From: Escherichia phage vB_Eco_Solly
DNA length: 64,000 nucleotides
Sequence record: OY720021
Reading direction: 5' to 3' (one strand)
In this document: positions 5,999-26,653 of the stretch, piece by piece
How positions within the stretch are numbered: position 1 is the first letter of the stretch
Layout: every line of letters begins with the position of its first letter
Made by a program: the position numbers and the translations under genes
The notes under the pieces: generated by a model
Told to the model about the DNA's origin: nothing
What the model saw: the letters and a program-made list of their open reading frames with translations, nothing else
The model's database searches: none

Positions 5999-6027
5999 TA
6001 GATATATTTATTACATGGTATTTAGAC

Positions 6028-7539
6028 ATGATTGACATTAAAGCACATTTTTATGATTTTAGTCACGTGAGAATTGACTGTGAAGAAAGTACATTTCATG
6101 AACTCCGTGATTTCTTTAGCTTTGAAGCTGATGGGTATCGTTTTAATCCGAAATACAAATATGGCCACTGGGATGGACGAATCCGTCTTTTAGATTATAA
6201 TCGTCTTCTTCCATTCGGCTTAGTCGGGCAAATTAAAAAGTTCTGTGATAACTTTGGCTATAAAGCCTGGATTGACCCGCAAATTAACGAAAAAGAAGAA
6301 TTATCAAGAAAAGATTTTGATGAATGGCTTTCTAAATTAGAAATCTATTCAGGAAATAAAAGAATTGAACCGCACTGGTATCAAAAAGATGCAGTGTTCG
6401 AAGGATTAGTTAATCGTCGTAGAATTCTTAATCTTCCAACATCCGCTGGTAAATCGTTAATTCAAGCTTTGCTTGCTCGGTATTATTTGGAAAATTATGA
6501 AGGTAAAATTCTTATCATTGTTCCAACAACTGCCTTAACAACTCAGATGGCTGATGACTTCGTCGACTATCGTCTATTCAGTCATGCAATGATAAAGAAA
6601 ATTGGTGGCGGAGCATCAAAAGATGATAAATATAAAAATGATGCACCAGTCGTTGTTGGTACATGGCAAACTGTAGTTAAACAACCAAAAGAATGGTTCT
6701 CACAGTTTGGAATGATGATGAATGATGAATGCCATCTTGCTACAGGAAAAAGTATTTCATCTATCATATCAGGTTTAAATAACTGCATGTTCAAATTCGG
6801 TTTGTCTGGTTCATTACGTGATGGCAAAGCTAATATCATGCAGTATGTTGGGATGTTTGGTGAAATATTTAAACCAGTAACGACTTCTAAATTAATGGAA
6901 GATGGACAAGTAACTGAGCTAAAAATTAATAGTATTTTTCTTCGCTATCCCGATGAGTTCACTACTAAATTAAAGGGAAAAACTTATCAAGAAGAAATAA
7001 AAATTATTACGGGGCTTAGTAAAAGAAATAAATGGATCGCTAAATTAGCTATTAAGCTTGCGCAAAAAGATGAAAACGCTTTTGTCATGTTTAAACATGT
7101 ATCACATGGTAAAGCTATTTTCGATTTAATTAAAAATGAATACGATAAAGTTTATTACGTATCAGGGGAAGTTGATACCGAAACCCGCAATATAATGAAA
7201 ACCTTAGCTGAAAATGGTAAAGGAATAATTATAGTAGCTAGTTATGGTGTATTTTCTACTGGTATTTCAGTTAAAAATCTGCATCACGTTGTTTTAGCGC
7301 ACGGTGTTAAATCAAAAATCATTGTATTACAAACAATCGGTCGTGTATTACGTAAGCATGGTTCTAAGACAATAGCAACCGTCTGGGACCTCATAGATGA
7401 TTGTGGCGTTAAGCCAAAATCTGCTAATACGAAAAAGAAATATGTTCATTTGAACTATCTTTTAAAACACGGCATTGATCGTATTCAGCGCTATGCAGAT
7501 GAAAAATTTAATTACGTAATGAAAACAGTTAATTTATAA
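6028..7539 (+). CDS. uvsW: UvsW SF2 DNA helicase, helicase core (ORF ends prematurely relative to a fused 587-aa form)
   Basis: 503 aa; Walker A PTSAGKS and DECH box; stop TAA 7537..7539 inside a stretch where the downstream frame is already open. Confidence 0.9.
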   Translation: MIDIKAHFYDFSHVRIDCEESTFHELRDFFSFEADGYRFNPKYKYGHWDGRIRLLDYNRLLPFGLVGQIKKFCDNFGYKAWIDPQINEKEELSRKDFDEWLSKLEIYSGNKRIEPHWYQKDAVFEGLVNRRRILNLPTSAGKSLIQALLARYYLENYEGKILIIVPTTALTTQMADDFVDYRLFSHAMIKKIGGGASKDDKYKNDAPVVVGTWQTVVKQPKEWFSQFGMMMNDECHLATGKSISSIISGLNNCMFKFGLSGSLRDGKANIMQYVGMFGEIFKPVTTSKLMEDGQVTELKINSIFLRYPDEFTTKLKGKTYQEEIKIITGLSKRNKWIAKLAIKLAQKDENAFVMFKHVSHGKAIFDLIKNEYDKVYYVSGEVDTETRNIMKTLAENGKGIIIVASYGVFSTGISVKNLHHVVLAHGVKSKIIVLQTIGRVLRKHGSKTIATVWDLIDDCGVKPKSANTKKKYVHLNYLLKHGIDRIQRYADEKFNYVMKTVNL

Positions 7540-18505: not shown

Positions 18506-20599
18506 TTATCCTTGAACGAACTTGTAAGGCATGTTTGTAATATCTATGCAAGACGCAATAATTCCAAGAGATGATTCTACTTTCTGTTTAACGTTTGATG
18601 AAACAAATGATGCAAAGTCAACTCTGTCTTCTATTTCAATATCACCTGTCATTGCAACCAATTCACCAGTTTCCATTAAATGGTCTCCGTCATAGATTAC
18701 CGATTCAGTGAGCTCTTCCGTGGTCATAACTTCAGCTTGAATGAGTTTTGTATTATTAGATGTTGTTCCGTCATTATTAGAAGCATCAGTTATTTTATTA
18801 ACTTTGACCATCAATCCACGTGGTAGAATAACTTCAGCTTCTGTTGCTATTCCGAGACTTCCTGGATATACAACATTAACTTTATGAGCTCCATCAATTG
18901 CCCATCCTATTTGAACTTTAACGTATTCAGGATTTTCTTTATACGCTCTTATTTCGTTTGGATTAATAGTTATTCCTTCTTCATTTTTATCAACTGTTAA
19001 TTCGTTGCGAGCTTCTGGTTCTAAAAGACCAATACCAGCGTGTGTAATTCCAAAACGTCCAAAAATGATAGGAGTTAAAGAAGTAGATACAAAATTTCTA
19101 AAATAGAACACTTTATTTTTAACTAACGCTTCATATATAGGAGCAGTCATACTTTGAGCACGATAAACTGTAATGCCTTCTGGTATACGGTCACCATTTT
19201 CAAAAGCTGAATCTAAGTTATTTATAGCAGATTCAATTTCTTTTTCACTCATTACATCATATCGTTCTGGATTGTAACGACCTAAAAGAAGATTATTGAT
19301 GTCAGTATATCCTGAACCGCAATATTCTCTAATGCCACGCTTTTGTGATGGAGTATATTTAGAACCATCGCGGGCAATAGTAATATCAATCATTGGACCA
19401 GCACCAATTCCAGAAAAACTGTAAATCATTCGTTTGAGGAATTTAGTTTTTGCTGCGTTCCAGGAATTTTTAGTTATTTCTTCCCAGACTTCATCTGGTT
19501 GTCCTTTACGATTTTTATTATGATTAGCAAGCCATTTATCTTTATAATCTTCAAAGAATTGATTTACAGCTGCTGCGTATTTCTCTAAACATTTTATTGA
19601 AGTAGTTGGTTCATTTTTAATTGCATTAAAAATTACTTCTTTAATTTTTTCTGAAACTTCACCGACTTGACTCATTGGAAAGAATTTATAATCATAGTGA
19701 AGTTCATCTGCCGTTCCTTCAGCAATAATTTTTGCTGCCTTTGTTTTAGAAGCTAATGAATTAATTCCAATTTTCATTTCTTCTGCTTCGGGAATTAAAG
19801 GTGCAGTAGCTGGTTTATTAAAATTAGCTGCTGTAGATTCATACTTCTGGAATAATTCACTTTCAAATCTAGAAGATTCCAATGACTGACTTTGTGCAAT
19901 TGCTCTACGGGAAATTTTAACTTTAACGATTACGGCTTGGTCAGAACGTTTATCATTTTCTTGTGCAATTGATGCTGCAATTGCCTCATTTTTAGTTACT
20001 TGGGCTCCAGTATCTTTATTGATATAAACATCACCGACTTTCGATTCAACTTTAGTAAAGAGCTCGGTACTAATTTCCGGAACTCCTGGAATGTCTTCTA
20101 GTGATACATTTTTGCGATGTATAAGAATATATGCATACTTTTTATCGTAATCCCAGAGTTCCTTAAGAAGGACGTATCTACCACCTGAACGACTACGGAT
20201 AAGTCTATCAGCAATAACTTGAATTTGTCGAGCTTGACCGGCGGTTTTAGACTTAAGAATACGAAGCATACAAGCATCAATTTTATATTGACGCATTGTT
20301 TGCATTGCAACAGTAAAAACTGAATTGATATAATTAATTGGGCTTGGACCAAGACCTTTTAATTTAGCAATTGAACCTTTAGCAGTTAATGTAAAAGGAA
20401 CAATATGCATCATTTTATCGCCCATCTTTAAATCGCGATTAGTATCACCTCCAGATGTATAGGTACATAAACGAAAGCCTGGTTGTTCAATTGCATCATC
20501 AACATGAACTGAAAAAATTTGTGGTATTTTCTTCTTTGGATTTAAGTTTGTAATCGGAAGAGTAGTATCTTCGTCAAATAATTCTGTAATGAGTTCCAT
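18506..20599 (-). CDS. Alt-like mono-ADP-ribosyltransferase, paralog B
   Basis: About 697 aa from second ATG; N-terminal 200 aa near-identical to paralog A; C-terminal VYRAQ, FVSTSL, TEAEVILPRG; late promoter 20623..20630. Confidence 0.85.
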   Translation of the reverse strand: MELITELFDEDTTLPITNLNPKKKIPQIFSVHVDDAIEQPGFRLCTYTSGGDTNRDLKMGDKMMHIVPFTLTAKGSIAKLKGLGPSPINYINSVFTVAMQTMRQYKIDACMLRILKSKTAGQARQIQVIADRLIRSRSGGRYVLLKELWDYDKKYAYILIHRKNVSLEDIPGVPEISTELFTKVESKVGDVYINKDTGAQVTKNEAIAASIAQENDKRSDQAVIVKVKISRRAIAQSQSLESSRFESELFQKYESTAANFNKPATAPLIPEAEEMKIGINSLASKTKAAKIIAEGTADELHYDYKFFPMSQVGEVSEKIKEVIFNAIKNEPTTSIKCLEKYAAAVNQFFEDYKDKWLANHNKNRKGQPDEVWEEITKNSWNAAKTKFLKRMIYSFSGIGAGPMIDITIARDGSKYTPSQKRGIREYCGSGYTDINNLLLGRYNPERYDVMSEKEIESAINNLDSAFENGDRIPEGITVYRAQSMTAPIYEALVKNKVFYFRNFVSTSLTPIIFGRFGITHAGIGLLEPEARNELTVDKNEEGITINPNEIRAYKENPEYVKVQIGWAIDGAHKVNVVYPGSLGIATEAEVILPRGLMVKVNKITDASNNDGTTSNNTKLIQAEVMTTEELTESVIYDGDHLMETGELVAMTGDIEIEDRVDFASFVSSNVKQKVESSLGIIASCIDITNMPYKFVQG

Positions 20600-20622
20600 C
20601 ATATCCTCTCTAGTGTTTATTC

Positions 20623-20630
20623 TATTTATA
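20623..20630 (-). promoter_or_regulatory. Late promoter TATAAATA for the alt paralog operon
   Basis: Plus-strand TATTTATA 24 nt upstream of alt paralog B ATG. Confidence 0.6.
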
Positions 20631-20651
20631 AAATTAAAGGCCCGAAGGCCT

Positions 20652-20840
20652 TTAATAATCTATTGGTAAGAGAGTACGATATATTTCAAACTTTGGACCT
20701 TTTTCATAGGCATCAAATGTTTCTGTGAATTTATTATAAGCATATGCATCTATAAATTCAATCATGATTTGTGATACAGAAGTAGAAACATCTCCACCTT
20801 CTTTTTGAGCCACGACAATTGTTTCTAAGTAAGCTTTCAT
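20652..20840 (-). CDS. Hypothetical small protein between ligase and alt
   Basis: 62 aa ORF; start overlaps gene 30 stop. Confidence 0.45.
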   Translation of the reverse strand: MKAYLETIVVAQKEGGDVSTSVSQIMIEFIDAYAYNKFTETFDAYEKGPKFEIYRTLLPIDY

Positions 20841-22300
20841 AAACCAGTTACCTCATGAAAATCGCCAAATACATCTTCGAACGTATTAGCTTTAGTTTTA
20901 TCTTCACGTAAACGAATCGCAATCGGAAGAAATAATTTAACGTAATCAGTGCGGCCATCAGATTTTAACCAACCGTTGCATTCGCACTCTAGAATTTTTC
21001 CAATATAATAATTTTGGTTTTCCATAATGCGAGTGCGGTCAAGTTCATGTGATTTTACGCCGGCTTTATCTTTTAAGCCTGAACCGGCATTTACCTTAAT
21101 TTTTCCACACTCTGACTCAAGAATAAATCCACCTGCTTTAGTAGGGTCTTTACGGTGAGGATAAATTCCTACAATTTTTAAATCAACATCAATTACTTCT
21201 TTAAATTTATAGAGATTTTTTGAACGAGCATTTTCCCATAATCCATCGATATTTTTGAGAATAATACCTTCAAGACCTTGGTCAATATACTTTTTATAAA
21301 TTACCTTAGCTTCATCTAGGTTATTTACTACTTGGTTTTCAATTAAAATTACTTTATCATATCCTGATGTCATTTGTTCTAATTTAGAAAAACGTACATC
21401 ATATTTTAAACGAAATGCTGGAAGACCGTATATTTCTACCAACGGAACATAATCCCAGACCTGAAACTTCATGCATTGTGCTTCTTTTTCAGAAATGGTT
21501 CCCTTTAAAGATTTATTGGCGATTCCATTAGAAGCAGTACGTGATTCAGCTACTTCGGCGAATTCTTTAGCTTTACTAATTTCAGGATAAGCATCAAAAA
21601 GAAAATCTAGGCCTTCTGGCTCCTTTTTAACTTGCTCATGGTATACCAATTCGCCATCAATTAACACACCTTCTGGATGAATCTGGCGGGCTTCAGCAGT
21701 CATTTTGATTAACTCTTCCTTAAGAAGATCTAATCCTAGATATTCATTACCAGCTCGTGATAAAAGACGAACATCATCTAATTCATCACCTCTGACTTCA
21801 GCAAAGCACCGAGCTCCATCAGCTTTTAATTGGGCAAAGGCTGGAAATTTGATATTCTTATTAATGCCTTTTTCATCATAAGAACTTGCCAGCATTTGAG
21901 GTTGTTCAGGAATTAAACCTGGCCAAACTTTGTTTGCAATAGATACTGATGCACCACATTCAAGGTCTCGCATCATCACCCGACGCAAAACTTCAACGTC
22001 ATCTTTTTTACCGTCAGCAATATATCCAGTTAATTCCTCAATTGCCGCATTTCCGGTCAATTTCCGAGTAGCTAACGTGAATTCAATGAAGTCAAGCATA
22101 TCGGTAAGAGTCAACATTCCAAAACTCTGGGTAGCAATACCAGGTTTAGGCCATTTCTTGATATAATACTGTAACCCACGAGAATAAGTCAGACGATATA
22201 CTCGTTTAAGCAATTCATTATCTTTATTCTTTTCAAGAATTGCTTGCTTCTGCTTAGTTGAACCAATAGATGCTATTTCGTTTAGAATTTTAAGAATCAT
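20837..22300 (-). CDS. 30: ATP-dependent DNA ligase gp30
   Basis: 487 aa; adenylation motif I KADGAR. Confidence 0.9.
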   Translation of the reverse strand: MILKILNEIASIGSTKQKQAILEKNKDNELLKRVYRLTYSRGLQYYIKKWPKPGIATQSFGMLTLTDMLDFIEFTLATRKLTGNAAIEELTGYIADGKKDDVEVLRRVMMRDLECGASVSIANKVWPGLIPEQPQMLASSYDEKGINKNIKFPAFAQLKADGARCFAEVRGDELDDVRLLSRAGNEYLGLDLLKEELIKMTAEARQIHPEGVLIDGELVYHEQVKKEPEGLDFLFDAYPEISKAKEFAEVAESRTASNGIANKSLKGTISEKEAQCMKFQVWDYVPLVEIYGLPAFRLKYDVRFSKLEQMTSGYDKVILIENQVVNNLDEAKVIYKKYIDQGLEGIILKNIDGLWENARSKNLYKFKEVIDVDLKIVGIYPHRKDPTKAGGFILESECGKIKVNAGSGLKDKAGVKSHELDRTRIMENQNYYIGKILECECNGWLKSDGRTDYVKLFLPIAIRLREDKTKANTFEDVFGDFHEVTGL

Positions 22301-22566
22301 TGTTCATCCTTTAGAGTTTGGTTTACAGCTCTATTATAAATCAATTCATCATTAAGCTCAGTCAAAGACCTGTGGTACGTTGTTCTAACTTTATTTCCTT
22401 GCATCCAGTGCTTGACGTAAATGAAACCTTGCTCTACACATTTTTTAAAAATTCGTTCGTCTTTTTGAGCTCGGAATTCTGGATTGCATCTAAAAAATTG
22501 ATTTACGTGACCGTAATCACGTGTAGTATTACCTTCATTTTCATAAATAGTATGAACGACAAACAT
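22297..22566 (-). CDS. Hypothetical protein (30.1-like position)
   Basis: 89 aa; stop overlaps gene 30 start. Confidence 0.5.
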   Translation of the reverse strand: MFVVHTIYENEGNTTRDYGHVNQFFRCNPEFRAQKDERIFKKCVEQGFIYVKHWMQGNKVRTTYHRSLTELNDELIYNRAVNQTLKDEQ

Positions 22567-23402
22567 TAGAATGCTCCTTGGAAAATATTATCACCACTAG
22601 TAGGTCTATTATACAAATACTCTATGCCACCGGGTTTAATATAATTCCATGTCTGAAACGGATGTGTATAATATGGATGATATGGATTATAAGGATTAAA
22701 TCCAGGAGTTCTCCAGGTAGTGTTCCAACGAAAAGAATCATTTTTAATCATCTTTTCAATTATATTTTTTATAGCTTTTTCGCTATCAAAACTTTCTTTA
22801 TTTTCCTTTGGTGAAAAAAGCTTATTTTCTACATCATTCCATGTATAAACTCGCTGAGCGGTTTTTGGAATATTGTCACGCTCTCCTCGCGCCATCCAAT
22901 AAACAGGAACATTTAATATTTCACTCGCATGGTCGCAGTGGTGAGCGAGATCGTCAATATAACAAATTACGTTATATTTCTCTTTTGCCTTTTTAAATAA
23001 CTCTTCTTTTGAAGAATCATGACCACACATCATTACTTCTGAGAAGGCACCAGGAAAAAGAGCATTCAAATTAAATTGACGATTCAGCAGAGCGTCAATA
23101 GAATCACCCAATGCTGTAACAGCTACAAAATTATAATCTTCTTTTAGTTTGTTAATTACGCACAGGGCATCTTTATATGGAGACAAGTAACGAATAAAAT
23201 CTGATCGATTGTATTTTTCAATTAACTTAACGCCAAGTTCTTCGTCACAATTAAAGAGTTTACCTGGAGAAATAAATTTCTCATCTTGGATCATTTTTAA
23301 AATATGTTCTAACGGAAGATTATATTTCTGAGCAAAATAAGGAAGACCTGATTGCCAGCTTAAACATACTCCATCAATATCAGTTAAAATAGTAGGCTTC
23401 AT
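22566..23402 (-). CDS. HAD-superfamily phosphatase-like protein (30.2-like position)
   Basis: 278 aa; N-terminal HAD motif I LTDIDGV. Confidence 0.6.
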   Translation of the reverse strand: MKPTILTDIDGVCLSWQSGLPYFAQKYNLPLEHILKMIQDEKFISPGKLFNCDEELGVKLIEKYNRSDFIRYLSPYKDALCVINKLKEDYNFVAVTALGDSIDALLNRQFNLNALFPGAFSEVMMCGHDSSKEELFKKAKEKYNVICYIDDLAHHCDHASEILNVPVYWMARGERDNIPKTAQRVYTWNDVENKLFSPKENKESFDSEKAIKNIIEKMIKNDSFRWNTTWRTPGFNPYNPYHPYYTHPFQTWNYIKPGGIEYLYNRPTSGDNIFQGAF

Positions 23403-23863
23403 AGAGAGTCTCTTAATAGGTTTAACACATCAATAAATTCAGCTTCGGTTAGTATTGTATCATCTTTTGTTAGACCACTAGCCATGCTGTGCTTCAAAAC
23501 TTTTCCTTTCGAGGCTTGTAATGCATCACGAAAGCCCCTGTTTTGGATCGCTGCTTCAAAATATGCATTTGTGTATAATTCTTTCCATGCTTCGGAATAT
23601 CTTGAAAACGGAACTCCAAGCCAGAAGAGGGTCCCACGGTCCTGAGCTCTAGCATAAGACCTTCCAGCTTGTTGGGCGGCAAGCCCGGATAACCCAAATA
23701 TACGACGTTGTTGTTCAACATTTTTCACCTTACATCCTTGGAGGAATCCTTCGAGACCTCCGAATTGAATACCATCCATGACGAAAGGCCATTGGGCGAA
23801 ATTACTTAATGCGCATGATGGCCATCTAAAATTGCTTCTTATCTCTAACTCAGACATTTTCAA
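23399..23863 (-). CDS. NADAR / YbiA-like protein (30.3-like position)
   Basis: 154 aa; LSNFAQWPFVMDG resembles the YbiA FSNFAAWPIKVDG core as recalled. Confidence 0.7.
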   Translation of the reverse strand: MKMSELEIRSNFRWPSCALSNFAQWPFVMDGIQFGGLEGFLQGCKVKNVEQQRRIFGLSGLAAQQAGRSYARAQDRGTLFWLGVPFSRYSEAWKELYTNAYFEAAIQNRGFRDALQASKGKVLKHSMASGLTKDDTILTEAEFIDVLNLLRDSL

Positions 23864-24056
23864 TACTTATAATTTCAACATCAGCCCAATGACCATAGCA
23901 AGGAAGACGAAATTCAACTGGCCAGTTAGGATCCTTTTCTAATATAATAGACTGAACTTGTGGCTCTTCATGTTCATCGGTATACGGACCTTTATACGTT
24001 ACTTTATATGTAACCTTAATGTACTGAATTCCAAAAATCTTATTAATTATATTCAT
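23850..24056 (-). CDS. Hypothetical small protein
   Basis: 68 aa ORF in tightly overlapped early block. Confidence 0.45.
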   Translation of the reverse strand: MNIINKIFGIQYIKVTYKVTYKGPYTDEHEEPQVQSIILEKDPNWPVEFRLPCYGHWADVEIISIENV

Positions 24057-24250
24057 ATTAATTCCTTTAATCCGTAAATAGGAGATAATTCATCACCCAT
24101 ACGAAGGTCTTCATTTCCATCTACCCAGGAAACAATATAAGCCTCTTTTATTTGAATACCACTCCATTTAAATGGAGGTAGAACCTTAGAAATTAATCCA
24201 GGTATACCAACCCCCTTTAATTCAACAGTTTGACCTAAAAAGAATTTCAT
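24053..24250 (-). CDS. Hypothetical small protein
   Basis: 65 aa ORF; overlaps neighbours by 4 nt. Confidence 0.45.
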   Translation of the reverse strand: MKFFLGQTVELKGVGIPGLISKVLPPFKWSGIQIKEAYIVSWVDGNEDLRMGDELSPIYGLKELI

Positions 24251-24537
24251 TAGAACCTCATCTGAAAACCATGCGATTTAACATTACCGCCGCCGATATC
24301 AGAAATGTTAATTTCGCGCGCGATTGAAGGGTCAATGTCAATTTCACGGTTGAGTTTAGTGATAGCTAGAGTATCACGCCCATTTACAGTACGGAACTCT
24401 AAAGGACATACTACATTAACATAGTTTTTAATCGATTCACTGGTAGGCTGCAAATGAGCAGGAAGGTCTTTAGGCGCCTTAGAGAAAACTACTTCGCAGA
24501 AGTTTTTACGAGTATCAAAATAAGTAGTCATAAACAT
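24250..24537 (-). CDS. Hypothetical protein
   Basis: 95 aa ORF. Confidence 0.5.
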   Translation of the reverse strand: MFMTTYFDTRKNFCEVVFSKAPKDLPAHLQPTSESIKNYVNVVCPLEFRTVNGRDTLAITKLNREIDIDPSIAREINISDIGGGNVKSHGFQMRF

Positions 24538-24578
24538 AGTATTTTCCTCAGTAAGGGGCCGAAGCCCCTTATTTTATT

Positions 24579-24944
24579 TTAAATATCAAATTCGTTAAGA
24601 ACTACATCAAAGATTGCTTCAAGATGCTCAGGTTTAGCTCTGTTACTCAGAATATGACGAATCCAAGTTTTAACCAGAAGCTTACGATTAACGCCATTCC
24701 AGCAAGGATGAGTCCCTAAATCACGTTGACGGAAATCATCATCCAAAGCGATTTTAAAAGAAGAACCTTCTTTCGTGATTGAAACCGTAATGCCATTTTC
24801 AAATCGCATATAAACGTAGTTAGGAGTCATATACTGTTCAATTTCGCATACTGATCCATTTTGATGTTTCCAAAGGCAAATAGTATCAATAGAACCTGCA
24901 ATACCGTTAGAAACATATTTACGTTCAAAGTTGATGTAGTTCAT
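24579..24944 (-). CDS. Hypothetical protein
   Basis: 121 aa ORF; early promoter-like element at 24950..25010. Confidence 0.5.
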   Translation of the reverse strand: MNYINFERKYVSNGIAGSIDTICLWKHQNGSVCEIEQYMTPNYVYMRFENGITVSITKEGSSFKIALDDDFRQRDLGTHPCWNGVNRKLLVKTWIRHILSNRAKPEHLEAIFDVVLNEFDI

Positions 24945-25012
24945 TTTTATTCTCCGAGATGTTTAATTGTGGTACAGGTATATAATATCATGTCCTGTAC
25001 CAAAGTAAACAA

Positions 25013-25345
25013 TTATTTTACTACTTTCCAATGCTTCATGTCAAGTTTACCAACTTTTTTCATCTTCTCAATTAAGCGTTCGGCACGTTGGCGAGCTGTA
25101 ACATAATGCCATTCGCCTAATTCATTTTGTTCAATTTTTCCAACGATTACTGTATTCAATTCATAAATCCAACCAGTAAAGAAATTATGAACTTGAATTG
25201 TAAAGGTGAAATCTGTTCCCATACCTTCTGTTGTTTCTACTTCAATAATATCACCTTCAACTGCCATTAAGAACCACATAGTTTCATCATATTTACCATT
25301 GAAGCATTTAGTTTTAACTGCAGCGTTCAGATTAATCGTTTTCAT
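25013..25345 (-). CDS. Hypothetical protein
   Basis: 110 aa ORF; early promoter-like element at 25350..25400. Confidence 0.5.
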   Translation of the reverse strand: MKTINLNAAVKTKCFNGKYDETMWFLMAVEGDIIEVETTEGMGTDFTFTIQVHNFFTGWIYELNTVIVGKIEQNELGEWHYVTARQRAERLIEKMKKVGKLDMKHWKVVK

Positions 25346-25455
25346 TTTATTCTCCTTTGTTTGTGTAAGATAATACTATCACAAAGGAACTATACTGTAA
25401 ACAACTTTATGCAATCTTTGGAAAATAAAAAAGGACTCCCGAAGGAGTCCTCAAC

Positions 25456-25632
25456 TTATGCTTTCTGCTTACCAAAACGAGAAGCATCATCTCGAAGAAC
25501 CGCACGTGCTCGACGCATGATCTTCTCAACAGTTTGATTGATACGAGAGTTCGACACACGCTTGTAGCCAGCGCGTTTAGAATCACCAACTTTCTTTTCA
25601 ACTGCTTTCTTTGCTTTAACTTGTTTTGCCAT
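25456..25632 (-). CDS. Small highly basic Lys/Arg-rich protein (58 aa), possible nucleic-acid binder
   Basis: MAKQVKAKKAVEKK...; start taken at ATG 25632 rather than the track start at 25674. Confidence 0.45.
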   Translation of the reverse strand: MAKQVKAKKAVEKKVGDSKRAGYKRVSNSRINQTVEKIMRRARAVLRDDASRFGKQKA

Positions 25633-25921
25633 TATAAATTCTCTTTTAAATGAAAATGCAGGACTTATTGACATTGCCTGCGCAAGCCCTCAAGGGGAAC
25701 ATAGGTTTTTGGATATTTAACGACCAGGATAACCATAAACCCGTCATCATACCACCAAGACTTACACAGATAACACTTTTCTGACGCATGATAGTAACAT
25801 TCAAGAGGTACACCGTAAAACTGTCGGGGTCTTAAAACTATAATGATTCGCAAATCATTAATCAGACAGTTCGACGGCTCCTCGTTTTAACTTCACACTA
25901 AGGCAGTGACTCTCCAATAAA

Positions 25922-26170
25922 TTATTTCAGTGTTACCACAAAGTGACGAACTGCTTTTCGTGCAGCAGAAGCCAGAGGCTTAGCATACTTAAGTTCATCT
26001 TTTTCCTGAAGCTCAGCAGCTAATGCAGTTTGAGCAGGATTCAGATGTTTGAAATAACGCAGGATTTCAAGAGCTTCGGCTTCAACATCAATAGATGCGC
26101 CATAGTTTTCGTGACCATTATTCCATGCGTTTCGTTGCAGTTCAAGAGCGTGTTGTAATTGTTTAATCAT
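25922..26170 (-). CDS. rIII: rIII-like lysis-inhibition accessory protein
   Basis: 82 aa immediately downstream of gene 31, the T4 rIII size and position; late promoter at 26310..26317. Confidence 0.6.
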   Translation of the reverse strand: MIKQLQHALELQRNAWNNGHENYGASIDVEAEALEILRYFKHLNPAQTALAAELQEKDELKYAKPLASAARKAVRHFVVTLK

Positions 26171-26309
26171 TTAAAAATTCTCGTTAGAGATTAAAACTCG
26201 GTAGTCACGTTCTTCTGAATTTCATCTTCTTTCGACAGATCTCTCAGTTGTAGACTACCACATAGAATTGTTCGGTTAACTTATTATTCCGACACCCAAT
26301 TCATATTAT

Positions 26310-26317
26310 TATTTATA
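26310..26317 (-). promoter_or_regulatory. Late promoter TATAAATA upstream of rIII
   Basis: Plus-strand TATTTATA between gene 31 stop and rIII start. Confidence 0.5.
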
Positions 26318-26653
26318 TCACTTATAAAGACACGGAATAGCTTTATAGTGACAGGTAACGAATTTTTGTTTAATTTCTTTTGGCTGCTTAAGACCCAGAG
26401 CTACAAAAGGATGCGGAACGTTTCGAATTTGACCAACTGGAAGAGAAGTCAAATCACCAACTTCGCAGAAACCTTCAGGAACATCAGGACCAACAGAGTG
26501 AACTACACACAGTTCAGGAACTTCACCTTGAACACGTTTACCGATAATAAGTCCTGATTCTGTAACTTCTTCATCACCGGCTTGTGCAGGTTCAGAAACT
26601 AAAATAACATATTCACCGACAGCACGAATTGGTAGCTGTTGTACTTCAGACAT
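26318..26653 (-). CDS. 31: Co-chaperonin gp31 (GroES-like)
   Basis: 111 aa, the T4 gp31 length; position between 30 block and cd. Confidence 0.8.

Follow-up and report, generated by a model that had tools for sequence, protein, structure and literature searches.

Two overlapping genes lie upstream of the DNA ligase gene of Escherichia phage vB_Eco_Solly. Does the first of them code for a counter-defence enzyme against DarT-type toxins, and is the second its partner in this task? The question was raised by a preliminary description of the window (the whole stretch of 64,000 nucleotides of record OY720021 that was analyzed), in which a NADAR/YbiA-like protein and a HAD-motif protein had been recognized side by side. 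On the sequence evidence, we consider it very probable that the first gene is the adfN orthologue of a T4-like phage and that the second codes for a HAD phosphatase that is not the required partner of AdfN. Thus, a true counter-defence gene can be recovered from a raw reading of the sequence. The analysis presented here corrects the start codon of this gene and removes the tempting idea that the neighboring phosphatase works with it.

Gene 30.3 within the chain of overlapping genes

The source of the window is a T4-like Tequatrovirus. The best-matching genomes of this genus were 96.8-98.3% identical to the window, and the T4 gene order (alt, alt.1, 30, 30.1, 30.2, 30.3, 30.4) was kept. Eight genes, from 30.6 to alt.1, form a chain linked by seven overlaps of 1, 4 or 8 nt (Table 1). 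The two ORFs described previously within 22566-23863 were both found on the minus strand, one at 23399-23863 (154 aa from a TTG codon) and the other corresponding to gene 30.2, together with the 4-nt overlap reported between them. However, the start of the first one had to be moved. The ATG at 23857, two codons downstream of the TTG at 23863, is the start annotated in T4, and we have taken it as such because no other start yields E36 and K43 as they are numbered in the literature. The ORF is therefore real, but it codes for 152 aa and not for 154. The stop of 30.4 overlaps this start in ATGTCTGA (23850-23857).

Table 1. Features of the 30.x region, in coordinates of the window.
Feature	Position	Strand	Description and basis
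Gene 30, ATP-dependent DNA ligase	20837-22300	(-)	Downstream, same chain; Pfam and T4 annotation
Gene 30.1, DUF3045	22297-22566	(-)	Downstream, same chain; Pfam and T4 annotation
Gene 30.2, 278 aa	22566-23402	(-)	Predicted HAD-superfamily phosphatase
HAD motif IV, D150-D151	22950-22955	(-)	Mg2+-binding acidic pair; invariant in 39 relatives
HAD motif I, D8-I-D10-G-V	23367-23381	(-)	Nucleophile Asp and acid/base Asp; D8, D10 and G11 invariant in 39 relatives
ATGA overlap, 30.3 stop / 30.2 start	23399-23402	(-)	4 nt; one of the seven chain overlaps
Gene 30.3 (adfN), 152 aa	23399-23857	(-)	Phage-type NADAR, guanine-ADP-ribose DNA glycohydrolase by orthology; PF08010, T4 annotation
H123, in LKHSM	23489-23491	(-)	Invariant in 44 relatives
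Catalytic stretch, E36 to K43	23729-23752	(-)	E-x-F-x-Q-x-x-K; E36 at 23750-23752, K43 at 23729-23731
NADAR core motif LSNFAQWPFVMDG, residues 17-29	23771-23809	(-)	Aligned to YbiA FSNFAAWPIKVDG
Gene 30.4, 68 aa	23850-24056	(-)	Directly upstream of 30.3; ORF and T4 annotation

We also scanned positions 20500-26500 for sigma-70 promoters and terminators. The 24 sites detected were no excess over shuffled sequence (20.6 ± 4.3), so that no boundary of a transcription unit can be claimed from them. It is plausible that 30.3 and 30.2 are co-transcribed and translationally coupled within the long early-gene chain.

The product of 30.3 was identical to T4 gp30.3 in 149 of the 152 residues (98%), aligned end to end over the full length. 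The three substitutions (P89E, K106R and I125M) are conservative or located at the surface, and none affects a known catalytic position. The protein matched Pfam PF08010 (Phage_30_3) with an E-value of 3e-69 (cutoff 36 bits). No match to the Pfam NADAR family, PF08719, was found for it at E <= 0.1, and its assignment to the NADARs comes from the fold, from the profile and from transitive evidence. PF08719 was matched by 19 of 44 relatives, with a best E-value of 1.5e-7. When the profile of the 30.3 family was compared with the PDB, the sole significant match was E. coli YbiA (E = 0.0019), spanning exactly the NADAR motif. The AlphaFold model (pLDDT 94.2, pTM 0.89) has the helical core flanked by small sheets that is typical of the YbiA-like fold. 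A Foldseek search of the model against the PDB, the kind of structural check that the preliminary description had proposed, put three NADARs on top (YbiA, 2b3w; the Phytophthora protein, 8bau; the Geobacter protein, 8bat), the fourth match having an E-value above 1. The YbiA/NADAR core claimed for this ORF, with its motif LSNFAQWPFVMDG, is thus supported by the profile, by the relatives and by the fold. Single-sequence searches of the 30.3 and 30.2 products against PDB sequences gave nothing useful, and neither product had a match in NCBIfam.

The residues expected of a working enzyme are in place. Among the 44 relatives L17, S18, N19, F20 and F25 were invariant, as was E36, while K43 was conserved in at least 90%; these last two residues align to the SEHYFQAQK stretch of YbiA. 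H123 sits where other NADARs have their third catalytic, acidic residue. In phage NADARs a His in the last strand replaces the catalytic Glu of the YbiA family or the Asp of the BC4488 / DarG1 family (PMC12945103, PMC11125620). The model also includes a helix at residues 138-151, so the C-terminal helix is intact, unlike in the truncated RB69 protein.

Function of AdfN and a possible second substrate

In the DarTG1 defence system, the toxin DarT1 uses NAD+ to attach ADP-ribose to guanines of phage DNA, at their N2 amino group (PMC11543638), a modification that, in the work with T4, stops phage DNA replication. Johannesman et al. (Nat Commun 2025, PMC11825919) identified T4 gp30.3 as the anti-DarT factor NADAR (AdfN), which is necessary and sufficient against DarTG1. 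It is a minimal NADAR consisting of the core fold only (PMC11825919), and it cleaves the N-glycosidic bond of guanine-ADP-ribose, so that ADP-ribose is freed, guanine is restored and replication continues. T4 AdfN is an orphan antitoxin, without a toxin gene alongside and without binding to DarT1. The genetic and biochemical evidence comes from the same study: adfN deletion mutants of T4 and T2 formed no plaques on DarTG1 hosts, ectopic AdfN rescued RB69 (whose own allele is truncated), and the purified protein cleared DarT1-modified DNA of ADP-ribose, something that the E36A mutant did not do. Both E36A and K43A weakened T4 AdfN in the assays, the two residues taking part in catalysis, and AdfN had no effect on DarTG2, its target being the guanine-modifying DarT1 and not the thymidine-modifying DarT2 (PMC11825919). 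The activity of AdfN in vitro was specific for guanine-ADP-ribose (Cihlova et al. 2024, PMC11125620; PMC12945103). In an independent T4 transposon screen of 2025, 30.3 insertions were strongly depleted on DarTG1 (log2FC -7.25 in the part of the table covering genes 26 to rnlA), while the gene was dispensable on E. coli K-12 and became essential only with DarTG1. In these same rows, insertions in 30.4 were mildly depleted on DarTG1 (log2FC -1.79, adjusted p 0.014), most likely through polarity on 30.3.

Given 98% identity over the full length, conservation of the key residues and the same gene order, the function of T4 AdfN can be transferred to the protein of the window. By orthology, this protein would be a guanine-ADP-ribose glycohydrolase that removes the ADP-ribose placed by DarT1 on phage DNA, as in T4, and it would protect the phage from DarTG1. 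The preliminary description had suggested exactly this counter-defence role, which has been demonstrated for the T4 orthologue (PMC11825919, PMC11125620), and the three checks that it recommended (structure, de-ADP-ribosylation assay and plating of a deletion mutant on DarTG hosts) had all been published for T4 AdfN. The finding is real but ordinary and already known, 30.3 being a near-identical allele of an AdfN characterized genetically, structurally and biochemically in 2024-2025.

Another possibility, to which we attach a small probability, is that proteins of the gp30.3 family also act physiologically on ADP-ribosylated RNA, notably tRNA, the repair of DarT1-modified DNA being only one of their roles. 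Outside the close relatives of T4, the NADAR gene is found in tRNA arrays far more often than beside the HAD gene. In 19 of 66 distant loci of the family the NADAR gene had a tRNA gene at a distance of 1.5 kb or less, and in 13 of the 66 there were tRNA genes at both sides and on the same strand, in contigs ranging from fragments of ~10 kb to 317 kb. NADAR genes embedded among tRNAs were also seen in Klebsiella phage ValerieMcCarty05, Salmonella S16 and Ralstonia phage RSP15 (Ackermannviridae). Besides, representatives of all NADAR families strip ADP-ribose from guanosine in RNA in vitro (PMC12945103). However, no tRNA gene was present near 30.3 in the window or in the close T4 relatives (0/14), the tRNA-linked loci are often related to each other and do not represent independent events, and the screen comparisons covered report no phenotype of 30.3 beyond DarTG1. 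In large phages, accessory genes are known to accumulate in tRNA arrays, so that the linkage may reflect nothing but position.

Gene 30.2 and its association with the ligase gene

The second gene had been described as coding for an adjacent HAD-motif protein of 278 aa, and our analysis agrees. In the structural model, residues 1 to ~197 make up a HAD core of Rossmann-like fold with a helical C1 cap, and residues ~198-278 a tail rich in proline and aromatic residues, mostly modeled with low confidence. All four HAD motifs were present, with D8/D10, K132 and D150/D151 invariant in 39 relatives and T96 conserved in at least 90% of them. Pfam gave no match for gp30.2 itself; its relatives matched NT5C (7/39) and Hydrolase (12/39), and the family profile pointed to the 5'(3')-deoxyribonucleotidase 2jao (E 0.016). 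In the BFVD library of viral folds we found only homologues and phage proteins automatically named 5' nucleotidases. Searching the literature for gp30.2, or for 30.2 together with T4 and HAD terms, we found no functional study and no published assay. Judging by its motifs and fold, gp30.2 is, most likely, an active HAD phosphatase that depends on Mg2+ and acts on a small phosphorylated substrate. Our best guess for this substrate is a (deoxy)nucleoside monophosphate, in view of the C1 cap and of the relationship with 5'(3')-deoxyribonucleotidases, the nearest relatives.

In other phages, the ligase gene was found downstream of the HAD gene in seven GenBank Straboviridae genomes and in the related phage F48, as well as in 20 IMG/VR loci (those with a strong HAD match and room downstream). 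The conserved partner of 30.2 is the DNA ligase gene. The NADAR gene moves across phages, often into tRNA arrays, while 30.2 stays by the ligase.

This bears on the idea that 30.3 and 30.2 make up a two-enzyme anti-DarT module, in which the HAD protein would process a product, or that 30.2 is the helper postulated for AdfN. T4 AdfN failed to protect uninfected E. coli against DarT1 and gave only a weak rescue of T5 and Bas25, and for these reasons a helper factor of T-even phages has been postulated (PMC11825919). With such a factor postulated, the mechanism described for AdfN may be incomplete. The two genes are co-oriented and overlap, both are found in ~1,500 phage records and are spread over the genera in almost the same way, and their adjacency was kept in 13 of 14 close T4 relatives, the locus of the 14th being incomplete. 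The postulated helper has to exist in Mosigvirus, to which RB69 belongs, and 30.2 does occur there. But co-occurrence in so many records was rejected as evidence of coupling, because both are near-core genes of the Straboviridae, and similar overlaps run through the whole chain of eight genes (30.6 to alt.1). Among the 66 distant loci of the gp30.3 family, only eight had a 30.2-type HAD gene within 6 kb, directly adjacent in just one, and in Marfavirus F48 the 30.2 and 30.3 genes are 58 kb apart. In the rows of the T4 screen cited above, 30.2 insertions (71 TA sites) were neutral on DarTG1 (log2FC -0.12, p 0.61). We have rejected 30.2 as the helper of AdfN on the basis of these published rows and of synteny, and we consider the two-enzyme module improbable as well. 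Transposon fitness in one condition may still be compatible with a redundant or quantitative helper role. The co-expression that the preliminary description had read from the overlap is plausible, while the functional coupling it implied finds no support in the neutral insertions of those rows, in an overlap that is generic along the chain, or in the 8/66 distant loci.

There is also a pair of side leads, which we regard as unlikely when taken together. NADARs of the gp30.3 family may repair ADP-ribosylated RNA or tRNA, and gp30.2 may be a nucleotide or DNA-end phosphatase associated with the ligase, whose conserved C-terminal GIEY..PT peptide could serve to dock it to a partner in replication or repair. 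Neither of them alters the identity of 30.3 as AdfN.

Comparison with known systems

Among known proteins, gp30.2 comes closest to the 5'(3')-deoxyribonucleotidases (NT5C PF06941; PDB 3bwv, 2jao and 6g2n), with which it shares the HAD core with a helical C1 cap. The DxDGV followed by [WF]xSG of dNT-1 is also present in gp30.2. On the other hand, the identity is at most 21%, gp30.2 has no NT5C match of its own, and it carries an additional C-terminal tail of ~80 aa with the conserved peptide GIEY[LWY]xx[RQ]PT.

Regarding 30.3, the best fold match was YbiA, the founding member of NADAR / DUF1768 (Foldseek E 3.4e-5, TM 0.67), and the two proteins have in common the motif SNFAxWP..DG...sE..fQ..K, although they are only 18% identical. 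This similarity, together with an alt gene that codes for an ADP-ribosyltransferase just ~2.8 kb downstream, could suggest that 30.3 is a YbiA-like N-glycosidase of riboflavin-pathway intermediates or, as the preliminary description had offered for the second case, an editor of the ADP-ribosylation carried out by the phage's own Alt, ModA or ModB. The Alt and Mod enzymes, however, modify proteins, at arginine and not at guanine. Both readings are very improbable, as in the 30.3 family an invariant His takes the place of the defining Glu of the YbiA family (PMC11125620), the NADAR gene lies outside the alt-ligase block in most lineages, and in the two T4 comparisons covered 30.3 was non-essential on K-12, with a phenotype on DarTG1 and no change in the other. 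YbiA is known for its action on riboflavin intermediates and gave no protection from DarT1 in vivo (PMC11125620).

DarG1 (E. coli C7; Geobacter lovleyi, PDB 8bat; Schuller et al., Mol Cell 2023, PMC11543638) has the same NADAR core fold and hydrolyzes guanine-N2-ADP-ribose on DNA, the activity found in the AdfN of T4. Unlike 30.3, whose motif starts at residue 17, DarG1 has an N-terminal extension forming a positively charged DNA-binding groove (PMC11825919, PMC11543638, PMC12945103). The third catalytic residue is Asp in DarG1 and His in 30.3, and AdfN could not replace DarG1 in uninfected cells (PMC11825919, PMC11125620). DarG1 is encoded beside darT1, whereas the neighbors of 30.3 are 30.4 and 30.2, in neither of which Pfam detected an ADP-ribosyltransferase; the nearest one is the product of alt, which acts on proteins. 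With no adjacent darT1 and no N-terminal extension, we rejected 30.3 as the DarG1 antitoxin of a DarTG1 system.

The comparison with T4 AdfN leads to a different result. The two proteins share their length (152 aa), the slot between 30.4 and 30.2, PF08010, the residues E36, K43 and H123, and the C-terminal helix. P89E, K106R and I125M are the only differences, as corresponds to sister phages with one and the same gene.

AdfN identity of gene 30.3

The 30.3 gene of the window is already known, as AdfN. Its protein is identical to T4 gp30.3 at 149 of 152 positions, and the T4 gene was renamed adfN by Johannesman et al., Nat Commun 2025 (PMC11825919). In their work, T2 and T4 adfN deletion mutants formed no plaques on hosts carrying DarTG1, the toxin-antitoxin defence whose DarT1 toxin puts ADP-ribose on guanine in phage DNA, and ectopic AdfN fully rescued RB69, whose own adfN copy has a frameshift and is short of the final 15 residues (PMC11825919). 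Purified AdfN took ADP-ribose off DarT1-modified DNA, AdfN did not bind DarT1, the E36A and K43A mutants were impaired, and the thymidine-modifying DarTG2 was not countered (PMC11825919). In agreement with this, Cihlova et al., Toxins 2024 (PMC11125620), had already shown that T4 gp30.3 removes ADP-ribose specifically from guanine in vitro, and the DarT1 chemistry is described by Schuller et al., Mol Cell 2023 (PMC11543638). Besides, in an independent T4 transposon screen (bioRxiv 10.1101/2025.11.20.689424), 30.3 was non-essential on K-12, and in its DarTG1 rows for genes 26 to rnlA the insertions in 30.3 were lost (log2FC -7.25).

The preliminary description had interpreted this ORF as an anti-DarT NADAR, and it was right, the published AdfN being the T4 orthologue. 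The studies that it proposed are already in the literature with positive results: the structural comparison of 30.3 with NADARs, the in vitro de-ADP-ribosylation assay (for the T4 protein) and the plating of a deletion mutant on DarTG hosts (for T4-type phages). Judged by sequence, the window 30.3 is the AdfN orthologue, with a full-length allele and every key residue, so that the function is taken over by orthology from T4. The ORF had been given as 154 aa; it is indeed present, but this length is a mechanical count from a TTG. The T4-annotated start, an ATG two codons downstream at 23857, gives 152 aa, and only with this start do E36 and K43 bear their published numbers.

Gene order and overlaps

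The window region belongs to a T4-like Tequatrovirus: with a query of 1.9 kb around it, 674 phage records matched, the best being Escherichia phage ECO07P2 (98.3%). The minus-strand ORFs follow the T4 annotation, in the order alt, alt.1, 30, 30.1, 30.2, 30.3, 30.4, 30.5 and 30.6.

Features of the 30.x region in the window
Feature	Coordinates	Strand	Remarks
alt	18506-20602	-	ORF, order compared with T4 annotation
alt.1		-	ORF between alt and gene 30, order as T4
30, ATP-dependent DNA ligase	20837-22300	-	ORF, order as T4
30.1, DUF3045 protein	22297-22566	-	ORF, order as T4
30.2, HAD	22566-23402	-	278 aa, order as T4
30.3	23399-23857 (ATG) or 23399-23863 (TTG)	-	ORF, order as T4
30.4	23850-24056	-	68 aa, stop overlaps 30.3 start, order as T4
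30.5 and 30.6		-	ORFs beyond 30.4, order as T4
Gene chain 30.6 to alt.1	20652-24537	-	Eight genes
30.2/30.3 overlap	23399-23402		ATGA
30.2 to ligase	20837-23402	-	HAD-ligase locus of the window
gp30.2 tail	22566-22811	-	Residues about 198-278
ORF inside 30.3	23494-23721	-	75 aa
Hairpin	24550-24573		Between 30.7 and 30.6

Genes 30.6 to alt.1, eight in all, follow one another with no intergenic space. Their starts and stops overlap by 1, 4 or 8 nt (ATGA, TAATG, ATGTCTGA), as is usual in T4 early clusters, so that translational coupling belongs to the block as a whole. The 4-nt overlap reported earlier between 30.3 and 30.2 is one of them.

The only intergenic gap upstream of this chain, 41 nt between 30.7 and 30.6, contains a perfect GC-rich hairpin (AGTAAGGGGCC-GAAG-CCCCTTATT) that may act as a terminator or serve in RNA processing or stability. 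The alt ORF has 698 aa versus 682 annotated in T4 (2049 nt), so the length of the Alt ADP-ribosyltransferase differs from the T4 reference. The intact 75-aa ORF inside 30.3, in another reading frame, is the counterpart of the T4-annotated 30.3' ("internal translation, in a different reading frame").

The HAD neighbour 30.2

The 30.2 protein, 97% identical to T4 gp30.2, had no match of its own in Pfam or NCBIfam. The HAD-type motif DIDGV is found at residues 8-12, and all four HAD motifs are kept in its 39-member family, with D8, D10, K132 and D150-D151 invariant and T96 in at least 90% of the members. The AlphaFold model is confident over a core spanning residues 1 to about 197, where a helical stretch inserted behind motif I is equivalent to a C1 cap. 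Motifs and model together make the HAD assignment solid; the substrate class is putative, with an NT5C-like nucleotidase as the leading candidate. Confidence is low over most of the C-terminal tail (pLDDT below 50 at residues 225-235 and 240-278), with a helix modelled at 207-220. This tail is rich in proline and aromatic residues, and 11 of the 39 otherwise divergent relatives share in it the peptide G-I-E-Y-[LWY]-x-x-[RQ]-P-T (GIEYLYNRPT, residues 259-268, in the window), which may be a docking motif.

A functional link with 30.3, implied by the earlier suggestion of co-expression, is not supported, on three lines of evidence. In the DarTG1 rows covering genes 26 to rnlA, 30.2 (71 TA sites) had a log2FC of -0.12 (p 0.61), versus -7.25 for 30.3 (bioRxiv 10.1101/2025.11.20.689424). 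The ATGA overlap does not indicate a specific pairing, as the same kind of overlap links all eight genes. As for synteny, we analyzed 80 IMG/VR loci with a gp30.3-family protein, 14 close (at least 84% identity) and 66 distant (below 50%). The 30.2 gene was directly downstream of 30.3 in 13 of the close loci, the 14th being cut off; a 30.2-type HAD was found within 6 kb in 8 of the distant ones and directly adjacent in one of those. Among GenBank genomes, the NADAR and 30.2-type genes adjoin in Acinetobacter phage Konradin, have small ORFs between them in RB43 and Aeromonas PX29 and are 58 kb from each other in Klebsiella phage F48; in ValerieMcCarty05, S16 and Vibrio PC-Liy1, no 30.2 match was within 4 kb of the NADAR gene. 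Both genes appear in about 1,500 phage records each, with matching genus counts, but this co-occurrence reflects their near-core status in T4-like phages rather than coupling.

T4 AdfN did not protect uninfected E. coli against DarT1, its rescue of T5 and Bas25 was weak, and the authors of that work therefore postulated a further T-even factor (PMC11825919). Within the DarTG1 rows for genes 26 to rnlA, the transposon data speak against 30.2 in this role; the only significant gene besides 30.3 was 30.4, mildly depleted (log2FC -1.79, adjusted p 0.014) (bioRxiv 10.1101/2025.11.20.689424). The simplest and probable explanation is polarity on 30.3; 30.4 could also be a candidate AdfN-potentiating factor.

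The constant neighbour of 30.2 is the ligase. We compared seven Straboviridae genomes from GenBank, the related phage F48 and those 20 IMG/VR loci in which the HAD match was strong and left room downstream (with the window, L001-L004, L011-L014, L015-L029, L044-L048, L062 and L092-L093). In every one the 30.2-type HAD was just upstream of an ATP-dependent DNA ligase gene, with at most four small ORFs between. In most of the GenBank genomes, and likewise in the loci nearest to T4, the ligase was followed by alt; in the others it was not.

The gp30.3 family among NADARs

Many distant family members are found near tRNA genes. The observation covers IMG/VR loci L028-L094, each with its NADAR gene near 6001-6450, and GenBank loci L005, L006 and L010. 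A tRNA gene was within 1.5 kb of the NADAR gene in 19 of the 66 distant IMG/VR loci (below 50% identity to the window 30.3), and in 13 of the 66 the NADAR gene lay between tRNA genes of the same strand; these loci are phylogenetically non-independent. ValerieMcCarty05, S16 and Ralstonia RSP15 also have tRNA-embedded NADAR genes. Contig sizes run from about 10 kb (fragments) up to 317 kb, one case is an Ackermannviridae phage, and the 14 close relatives of T4 all lack the arrangement. Phage tRNA arrays are common sites of accessory-gene build-up. Representatives of all NADAR families strip guanosine-ADP-ribose from RNA in vitro (PMC12945103), so an RNA-directed role may apply to the gp30.3 family.

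The window 30.3 protein matched PF08010 (Phage_30_3, E 3e-69) and alone did not reach the Pfam NADAR family PF08719, which was matched by 19 of its 44 relatives (best E 1.5e-7). The NADAR-like motif noticed earlier, LSNFAQWPFVMDG, is located at residues 17-29, and the alignment of the family profile with E. coli YbiA in the PDB (E 0.0019) spans it and the following E...K stretch. The AlphaFold model (44-sequence alignment, pLDDT 94.2) had three NADARs as its top PDB matches, YbiA 2b3w, Phytophthora 8bau and Geobacter 8bat, all the remaining ones being at E > 1. Across the 44 relatives E36 and H123 are invariant and K43 is kept in at least 90%. This histidine is the mark of phage NADARs (PMC11125620), whereas the YbiA-type enzymes have glutamate at the same position and the DarG1-type enzymes aspartate.
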